Of a stretch of DNA of 15,423 nt, positions 6,326 through 6,470 are shown one piece after another. The stretch comes from a virus (taxonomy: Duplodnaviria > Heunggongvirae > Uroviricota > Caudoviricetes). A program made the position numbers and the translations under genes. Position 1 is the stretch's first letter; each line of letters opens with the position of its first letter. The notes beneath the pieces were generated by a model. The model made no database searches. It was not told where the DNA came from and saw only the letters and a list, made by a program, of their open reading frames with translations. The stretch covers positions 1 through 15,423 of the IMG/VR virus record IMGVR_UViG_2698536618_000026. One strand, given 5' to 3'.

Positions 6326-6355
6326 ATATCCACCAACAATTTTAAATTGAATGAA

Positions 6356-6372
6356 ATCAAGTTATAATTGAT
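6356..6372. promoter_or_regulatory. 17-bp hyphenated dyad ATCAAGTTATAATTGAT, candidate operator at the leftward promoter
   Basis: 5-bp inverted arms ATCAA/TTGAT around a 7-bp AT-rich core, located at and just downstream of the predicted transcription start of the leftward promoter. Confidence 0.4.
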
Positions 6373-6378
6373 GGTGCG

Positions 6379-6407
6379 ATATTATGCTTTGAAAAACAGG
6401 ATGTCAA
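6379..6407 (-). promoter_or_regulatory. Near-consensus sigma70 promoter (pL-like), leftward
   Basis: Minus strand reads TTGACA, 17-nt spacer, TAATAT. Positioned between the cI terminator and the first early-left gene, like lambda pL. Confidence 0.55.
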
Positions 6408-6435
6408 GAAAAAATTGATATCGTATATTTTAGGC

Positions 6436-6459
6436 AGAAAAAAACGGGCAAAGCCCGTT
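6436..6459 (-). terminator. Rho-independent terminator downstream of the cI-like gene
   Basis: Minus-strand hairpin CGGGC-UUU-GCCCG followed by a run of 7-9 T, starting about 12 nt after the cI stop. The plus-strand reading has no T-tract. Confidence 0.55.
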
Positions 6460-6470
6460 AAAATCAAAGA

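Follow-up and report, generated by a model that had tools for sequence, protein, structure and literature searches.

A probable left operator-promoter region of a lambdoid E. coli prophage and a predicted operator map of its immunity type

In phage lambda, the cI-rexA-rexB transcript is terminated just upstream of the strong leftward promoter PL, which is under the control of several partially symmetric 17-bp operators that are also found between cI and cro. Three operators are packed at distances of 20−24 bp, the main operator sits in the spacer between the −10 and −35 hexamers, the first gene transcribed from PL is N, and CI bound at OR2 activates PRM. As for the operator half-sites of other phages, that of 434 reads ACAAG and that of P22 reads TTAAG. 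The immunity region of 933W has been studied by Tyler et al. 2004 and by the Koudelka laboratory (cited in PMC4587872 and PMC3317979). This phage is reported to have only two OL sites, "surrounding PL" (PMC4587872), and a repressor without cooperative binding to adjacent sites (PMC3317979), so that a two-site, non-adjacent OL is not unprecedented. Finally, the PaaR2/YdaS operators of CP-933P follow a GTTTAGTAA-type consensus (PMC8630535, PMC9986795), and its YdaT protein binds TTGATT-N6-AATCAA (PMC9986795).

The region discussed here occupies positions 6326−6470 of the window (the whole stretch of DNA that was analysed, 15,423 nucleotides in length), and it is located between two minus-strand genes, with cI upstream and an ORF of the HTH_3 type downstream. 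It is read as the OL/PL, or left operator-promoter region, of a lambdoid prophage of E. coli, an interpretation to which we assign a probability of about 0.85. Positions 6300−7320 of the window are 100% identical to a prophage of E. coli O39:NM str. F8704-2, the integration of which adjoins mlrA (yehV). The features on which the discussion is built are collected in Table 1.

Table 1. Coordinates of the genes, promoter elements, terminator, and predicted operators on both sides of cI
Feature	Position	Strand	Sequence	Basis or remark
First gene of the leftward operon, 147 aa	5882..6325	−		C-terminal HTH_3 domain; Pfam HTH_3 3e-10; phrog_4836 1e-73
OL3, candidate weak third operator	6335..6351	−	TTCAATTTAAAATTGTT	Matrix and pattern match
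OL1, the dyad of the first-pass annotation	6356..6372	−	ATCAATTATAACTTGAT	Predicted positions +1 to +17
PL −10 hexamer	6379..6384	−	TAATAT	Consensus scan; start predicted near 6372
PL −35 hexamer	6402..6407	−	TTGACA	Consensus scan; TTGAC invariant in all 8 loci
OL2 operator	6403..6419	−	ATCAATTTTTTCTTGAC	Predicted positions −47 to −31; overlaps PL −35
Intrinsic terminator of the cI transcript	6438..6459	−		Stem-loop 6443−6459 plus T-run 6444..6438
cI repressor gene, 229 aa	6471..7160	−		N-terminal HTH_3 and C-terminal S24 autopeptidase domains
ORa, OR3-like	7190..7206	+	ATAAATCTTTACTTGAT	Covers the predicted PRM start
Putative PRM −10	7210..7215	−	TACACT	ATGCAA, 17 nt, TAmAmT in 8/8 loci
Putative shared −35 of PR (+) and PRM (−)	7233..7238	both	TTGCAT/ATGCAA	Invariant
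ORb	7239..7255	+	GTTAATTTAAACTTGAT	Within the PR spacer; conserved in all 8 loci
Putative PR −10	7257..7262	+	TATTCT	TAnnnT 16−18 nt past TTGCAT in 8/8 loci
ORc	7269..7285	+	ATAAAGTTAATATTGGT	Predicted PR positions +1 to +17
cro, 90 aa	7294..7566	+		YdaS/P22_Cro-type HTH; Pfam YdaS_toxin 2.3e-13; phrog_35 6.5e-21

The loci used for comparison come from the phage records PhiR49_2 (L001), Stx2_112808 (L002), and phi467 (L003), and from the representative bacterial genomes of Pseudocitrobacter, an Enterobacteriaceae isolate, Pantoea, and Citrobacter youngae (L005−L008), whose CI proteins are 74−79% identical. The scan of species-representative genomes gave only these four close relatives, and the comparative set is therefore small. 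One more phage, Stx2_12E129_yecE (L004), carries a different cI and is taken up below.

The repressor matches Peptidase_S24 (4e-17) and HTH_3 (4.5e-8) in Pfam, as well as phrog_4 (1.8e-53). Because its residues Cys98-Gly99, Ser143, and Lys180 are invariant among 21 homologues, CI has the appearance of an SOS-cleavable repressor, and the solved structures closest to its N-terminal domain are those of the 434 repressor (E = 0.0015) and of P22 c2 (E = 0.05). The cro gene is adjacent to cI and divergently transcribed. To the left, PL would drive the early operon, composed of the HTH regulator, ea22-like genes, and then xis and int; in the RefSeq record, this operon appears as an Ea22-like pseudogene followed by xis and int at the left end of the prophage, beside mlrA. 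The product of the first gene, which aligns with its homologues of L001−L004, is truncated by an in-frame TAG, at a position where relatives carry GAG; without this codon, the predicted protein would count 245 aa and contain two HTH domains. The antiterminator N does not occupy this first place, which is held by the HTH_3 protein of phrog_4836 instead, and the RefSeq record of the region contains no N-like annotation. A search of 6326−6470 against Rfam returned no known RNA family.

The first-pass annotation had placed the terminator of cI just ahead of the leftward promoter, and a hairpin with its T-run is indeed found there. The hairpin, AACGGGC-TTT-GCCCGTT at 6459..6443 on the minus strand, starts 11 nt past the cI stop codon (6471−6473) and consists of a 7-bp stem, with G-C at five of the seven pairs, and a 3-nt loop; the run that follows counts seven T's, the first two of which are part of the stem. 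Its minimum free energy is −11.2 kcal/mol (z = −3.1 relative to shuffled sequences). Positions 6438−6459 thus combine what is expected of a Rho-independent terminator, namely, 3′ of a stop codon in the same orientation, a G+C-rich hairpin directly followed by a U-run. In L001, L005, and L006, cI is likewise followed by this stem, with other loops, and in L008 the stem is accompanied by a weak T tail. No such terminator is present in L002, L003, and L007, that is, in three of the eight relatives, which makes it a common, non-obligatory part of the design.

PL lies about 35 bp beyond this terminator. The minus-strand promoter claimed previously is present as described, with TTGACA (6407..6402), a 17-nt spacer, and TAATAT (6384..6379), and it agrees with the sigma-70 consensus at 10 of 12 positions. 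The distance between the hexamers falls within the 16−18 nt usual for promoters of this class, and the hexamers are conserved across the loci, while the spacer drifts. In the seven loci whose alignment needs no gaps (CI 74−99% identical), from which the footprint identities were computed, T1, A2, and T6 of the −10 are invariant (TAnnnT, 3/6 columns; pairwise identity 0.71), and the 17-nt spacer has no invariant column out of 17 (pairwise identity 0.38). Both operators have 13 invariant columns out of 17, with a mean pairwise identity of 0.90 for OL1 and of 0.89 for OL2. More generally, the elements are conserved in position across the eight related loci and the intervening sequence is not: the layout on the left is always a 17-bp site on the −35, a spacer of 17 nt (18 in L003), the −10, 6 nt, and a second 17-bp site, and the distances between centres are 47 bp for OL2-OL1 (48 in L003), 30−31 bp for ORb-ORc, and 49−50 bp for ORa-ORb. 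Judged by sequence, a functional promoter with protein-binding sites on either side would be expected to leave such a footprint. The same region contains a second 10/12 promoter match, on the opposite strand.

The operators overlap the core and the start of PL, with OL2 lying on the −35 and OL1 on the predicted start. OL1 corresponds to the 17-bp dyad that had been noted over the start site, and its presence, its position, and its conservation across the loci all bear out that claim. The dyad, ATCAAGTTATAATTGAT, has perfect 5-bp arms and is symmetric at 6/8 positions; it begins 6 nt past the −10, and its placement at +1 to +17 assumes the standard distance of 7 nt between the −10 and the start. 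It is the sole match without mismatches to the pattern ATCAAKT-N3-AMTTGAT, and in L005−L008 it becomes the perfect palindrome ATCAAGTTTAACTTGAT. Upstream of the −35, the TTGAT at 6415−6419 is where the annotation had it, but it does not stand alone: since the matrix scan described below finds a full 17-bp site at this place, the supposed lone half-site is the outer half of OL2, the inner half of which overlaps the −35. OL2, which reads ATCAAGTTTAACTTGAC in L005−L008, has the top score of the position-weight matrix, but it is one of the matrix's own source sites.

OL3 went unnoticed in the first-pass annotation. This candidate has the fourth-best matrix score in the window, with two mismatches to the degenerate pattern; its centre is 21 bp from that of OL1, and it abuts the ribosome-binding site GGTGG (6330−6334). 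It is present in L001−L003, with a better version, GTTAATTTTAAATTGAT, in L003, and it is not evident in L005−L008, so that only one subgroup possesses this weak third site.

Three further copies of the motif, ORa, ORb, and ORc, lie between cI and cro. ORa is the best matrix match outside the source sites; its position, 3−4 nt beyond the putative −10 of PRM, is conserved in all loci. The centre of ORb is at about −44 from the predicted PRM start. ORc, found by the matrix, has three mismatches to the pattern and a degenerate TTGGT half, at a place where the relatives carry ATCAATTATAGCTTGAT or similar, and its distance from the putative PR −10 is 6 nt, equal to the gap between the PL −10 and its operator. 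The string CTTGCATGT of the cI-cro spacer is invariant in the eight aligned loci. PR and PRM are putative assignments, made from conserved hexamers with divergent spacers between them, and their starts are predicted at about 7269 (+) and about 7203 (−), respectively. Other candidates were discarded: for PR, TTGATG with TAATAT has a spacer of 19 nt and a start that would remove the conserved ribosome-binding site, TTTAAA-18-TATAAA loses A2 of its −10 in L002, and TAAAGT is without a −35; for PRM, the −35 of TTGCAA-15-TAAAAT falls in the least conserved stretch.

The annotation had also pointed to three CTTGAT in this spacer as possible half-sites. All three exist (7201, 7250, and 7261); the first forms one half of ORa and the second one half of ORb. 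The copy at 7261 was rejected as an operator half, given its poor partner half (matrix score 5.4) and its absence in L005−L008. Only the closest relatives conserve it, and the third right-hand operator is instead ORc.

Taken as a family, the sites follow the palindromic consensus ATCAAGTT-T-AACTTGAT, of which both left sites of L005−L008 are near-perfect copies and those of the window slightly degenerate versions; within a half-site, C3, A4, and A5 are invariant. When both strands of the window were scanned with a position-weight matrix derived from the OL1 and OL2 sites of four phages, the six best sites all fell within the two intergenic regions flanking cI: OL2 and OL1, which are source sites, and then OL3, ORa, ORb, and ORc. 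Simple counts agree with the matrix. The two intergenic regions, 278 bp in total, contain seven TTGAT/ATCAA half-sites against 0.96 expected (p = 5e-5), and the excess is still about five-fold when the expectation is raised to ~1.3 to allow for 70% A+T. The pattern ATCAAKT-N3-AMTTGAT, with up to three mismatches, has 10 matches in the window against 3.0 expected; six of these 10 lie in the 278 intergenic bp, as do 5/9 of the non-seed matches (p = 2e-7). The suggestion that TTGAT-type half-sites serve both promoter regions is supported by this intergenic clustering and by the comparison of related loci.

Which protein would use the sites is a separate matter. The dyad at the start might be the autoregulatory operator of the downstream HTH protein (5882−6325) rather than a site for CI or Cro, as the product of that gene is a DNA-binding protein of the HTH_3 type, autorepression classically involves a dyad at +1, and OL3 is confined to the subgroup that shares the N-terminal domain of this protein. 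This explanation was rejected on the evidence of the mosaic phage Stx2_12E129_yecE: its first leftward gene has a near-identical HTH domain, but the ATCAA-N7-TTGAT dyad is missing upstream, and its OL and OR are made of GATAC-N4-GTATC-type sites. Because this mosaic, with the same HTH domain and another cI, carries different operators, the operators appear to travel with the cI/cro pair. Autoregulation is further disfavoured by the presence of the same motif three times in the cI-cro spacer and by L005−L008, which retain the dyad though their first genes appear different, a comparison based only on the first residues downstream of PL; it is thus considered highly improbable.

It is about as improbable that the sites are real and used by one switch protein only, either Cro or CI, or additionally by a host factor. 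CI and Cro co-vary in type in every locus examined, and comparison therefore cannot say which of them binds, or whether both do. The CI of L008 has the recognition helix AQTVVYWTKG instead of AQSVQYWTTG with unchanged operators, and hence there is no usable co-variation of specificity either. Use by a single protein would nevertheless go against what is the case, to our knowledge, in every characterised lambdoid switch (lambda, 434, P22, 933W, and N15), where CI and Cro share operators. By analogy with these switches, both CI and Cro would be expected to use the operators predicted here.

A more sceptical position is that the promoter-like hexamers and the dyad arose by chance in a spacer of 70% A+T and have no regulatory role. 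Taken one at a time, the features give some ground for it. Sigma-70 matches of at least 10/12 occur at the chance rate (2 observed in the window against 2.7 expected from shuffles; in the scan of 5800−7700, three promoter-like sites against 3.6 expected), the second such match on the opposite strand is a case in point, and about 0.6 17-mers with 6/8 symmetric positions are expected by chance per 145 bp, by our own estimate. The promoter and the dyad were consequently rejected as individually significant. Chance does not account, however, for operators and hexamers that stay conserved where the spacer drifts, in loci with CI proteins only 74−80% identical, nor for the strong clustering of motif matches in two intergenic regions, and this position is hardly credible. 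At the level of sequence, the features first reported are not beyond chance singly and are convincing through recurrence and conservation.

Finally, the idea that the TTGAT repeats are sites of a YdaT/CII-type regulator, prompted by the YdaS family of the Cro found here and by the TTGAT-containing inverted repeat that CP-933P YdaT recognises (PMC9986795), is the least probable of all and was rejected on orientation, lack of enrichment, and lack of a detectable homologue, as the half-sites are opposite and differently spaced (ATCAA-N7-TTGAT versus TTGATT-N6-AATCAA), TTGATT-N6-AATCAA shows no enrichment across the window (13 matches versus 11.6 expected), the CP-933P site is at the ydaS-ydaT junction and not at OL or OR, and Pfam detects no YdaT homologue among the six neighbouring ORFs scanned, the ORF after cro having no Pfam match.

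If the region is an OL/PL controlled by CI and Cro, it could work as follows. Transcripts of cI would end at the terminator, and lysogenic transcription of cI would in this way be kept out of the early-left operon. In the lysogen, dimers of an SOS-cleavable CI, with an HTH of the 434/P22-c2 type, would sit on the OL sites: at OL2, CI would block the binding of RNA polymerase or the recognition of the −35, and at OL1, it would prevent the open complex from forming or the polymerase from escaping the promoter. OL3 may assist in the subgroup that has it, since, at a distance of 21 bp, it is in phase with OL1. Cleavage of CI during the SOS response would allow PL to fire, and, after induction, Cro would damp PL through the same sites. 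The right-hand sites are placed so that they may repress PR and activate, then repress, PRM, in a putative order of occupancy.

The distance of 47 bp between OL2 and OL1 amounts to ~4.5 helical turns and leaves the two sites out of phase, which argues against a lambda-style pairwise cooperativity of adjacent dimers. Likewise, if PR and PRM share one −35, the binding of polymerase at both would be mutually exclusive. These observations raise the tentative idea, which we regard as rather unlikely to hold, that the switch has a geometry unlike that of lambda, defined by operators at the start sites of PL, PR, and PRM, by an OL with sites 47 bp apart and out of phase, and by a single palindromic −35 (TTGCAT/ATGCAA) for PR and PRM. 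If true, bistability would derive from promoter competition and start-site blocking, and not from cooperative occupancy of OR1-OR2.

This immunity type is present in 136 of 5,426 complete E. coli genomes (~2.5%), homologues with 72−87% identity are found in Citrobacter, Klebsiella, Cronobacter, Salmonella, Pantoea, and others, and the relatives include Stx2-converting phages of O145:H28-type strains. Outside this type, the next-closest phage CI is ~39% identical to that of the window. Four versions of the operator string had no match in the searchable literature, and a literature search on Stx-phage and lambdoid operators yielded no description of the present immunity type. For this immunity type, the analysis provides a testable operator consensus, given above, and a complete map of promoters and operators. 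From this map, homo-immunity among prophages can be predicted: lysogens of the present phage would be immune to phages of the L002/L003 type and probably to those of the L005−L008 type, but not to L004. The map also helps annotation and offers handles on the stability and the induction of Stx prophages. The general understanding of lambdoid switches is unchanged, and specialist interest is limited to the operator spacing and to the apparently shared −35 of PR and PRM.

Compared with the systems described at the beginning, CP-933P is similar in its YdaS-family Cro, in having operator sets at OL and OR, and in a PL that resembles PR. It is different in the operator consensus and in the opposite orientation of the YdaT half-sites, and the present locus has neither YdaT nor a toxin-antitoxin module. 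933W is likewise a lambdoid prophage of the Stx-phage type, but its repressor and operators belong to another family, and it carries N. With 434 and P22 the region shares palindromic operators of the dimer type, and the half-site TCAAG resembles ACAAG and TTAAG. The similarity is weak, though, as the recognition helix is AQSVQYW here and QQSIEQL in 434, the operator measures 17 bp instead of 14 (434) or 18 (P22), and the spacing and the overlap with the promoter differ.

The operator sequence is unrelated to that of lambda, the first gene of PL is an HTH_3 regulator and not N, and the terminator directly follows cI because there are no rex genes here. The promoter lies between OL2 and OL1, which are 47−48 bp apart in all eight loci and do not reproduce the adjacent packing of three sites; in addition, at PL, PR, and PRM alike, an operator lies over the predicted start, downstream of the −10, whereas the main operator of lambda is in the −10/−35 spacer. 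Conversely, the two have in common the repressor terminator upstream of PL, the repeated 17-bp operators on both sides, a repressor made of HTH and S24 domains, the divergent cro, and an ORb near the position from which lambda CI at OR2 activates PRM. The region is of textbook lambdoid layout.

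Within the cI-cro spacer, the invariant CTTGCATGT contains the palindromic hexamer TTGCAT/ATGCAA, and we infer that PR and PRM, the promoters placed in this spacer, appear to have this single −35 hexamer in common. If so, polymerase binding at one promoter would exclude binding at the other.

On the opposite side of cI, the A+T-rich centres of the predicted operators OL3 and OL1 hold a plus-strand TTTAAA-16-TATAAT, the only sigma-70 match of at least 10/12 in the 15.4-kb window besides PL. Its predicted start lies at about 6375, and transcription from there would enter the 3' end of cI in the antisense direction. 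Phage phi467 (L003) has a similar match, TTTAAA-18-TAAAAT, and no counterpart is present in Stx2_112808 (L002) or in the four loci taken from bacterial genomes (L005-L008). The match has probably arisen incidentally from the sequence of the operators. Just upstream of OL2, at about −50 to −60, is an A-rich stretch (AAAATATA in the window) which is represented by runs of 5-7 A in L005-L008 and is a possible UP element.

Further sequences resembling the operators or their half-sites were found near the end of cI. The 17-mer within the 3' end of the coding sequence has two mismatches to the degenerate operator pattern ATCAAKT-N3-AMTTGAT, is limited to the window and PhiR49_2 (L001), and probably arose by chance. 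A lone TTGAT immediately past the cI stop codon is retained in five of the eight loci (the window, L001, L002, L003 and L008), and no partner half-site was found for it. In L002 and L003, where the terminator is absent, one more ATCAAGT half-site precedes OL2 on its upstream side.

The first gene of the PL transcript is closed by an in-frame TAG where its relatives in L002 and L004 (Stx2_12E129_yecE) have GAG. In L002 the protein is 245 aa long, and its second HTH domain is 93% identical to the product of the next ORF in the window (71 aa). Read together, the codon change and this resemblance indicate that in this prophage an amber codon divides a two-HTH regulator into two parts.

Features of the immunity region and its surroundings (window coordinates unless a locus is named)
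Feature	Position	Strand	Sequence or match
71-aa ORF	5633-5848	-	
In-frame TAG	5882-5884	-	
Promoter-like match	6341-6368	+	
A-rich stretch	6420-6437		
Lone TTGAT	6463-6467	-	
Operator-like 17-mer	6508-6524		ATCACTTTAGACTGGAT
Palindromic −35 hexamer	7233-7238		
Terminator-like hairpin	7629..7607		
97-aa ORF, between cro and rha gene	7637-7930	-	phrog_4753 (unknown function), end to end, 2.5e-49
isrK Hfq-binding RNA	8923-8999	+	Rfam, 58.7 bits, above gathering score
C4 antisense RNA	9024-9111	+	Rfam, 78.8 bits, above gathering score
Extra ATCAAGT half-site	L002 3620-3632		
Extra ATCAAGT half-site	L003 2975-2990		
Candidate GATAC-N4-GTATC operators	L004 3990-4075 and 4760-4840		for example GATACTTAAGTATC and GATACCTTAGTTAC

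To the right of cro, the 97-aa ORF is followed by a terminator-like hairpin and looks like an inserted gene in the opposite orientation; the plus-strand 117-aa ORF that overlaps it had no match in the family search. Downstream of the Rha/Ant-like gene, the isrK and C4 matches lie inside or overlap an ORF annotated as 'ash family protein'.

In the hetero-immune Stx2a phage L004, which has a different cI, OL and OR each hold candidate operators of a separate family, GATAC-N4-GTATC.
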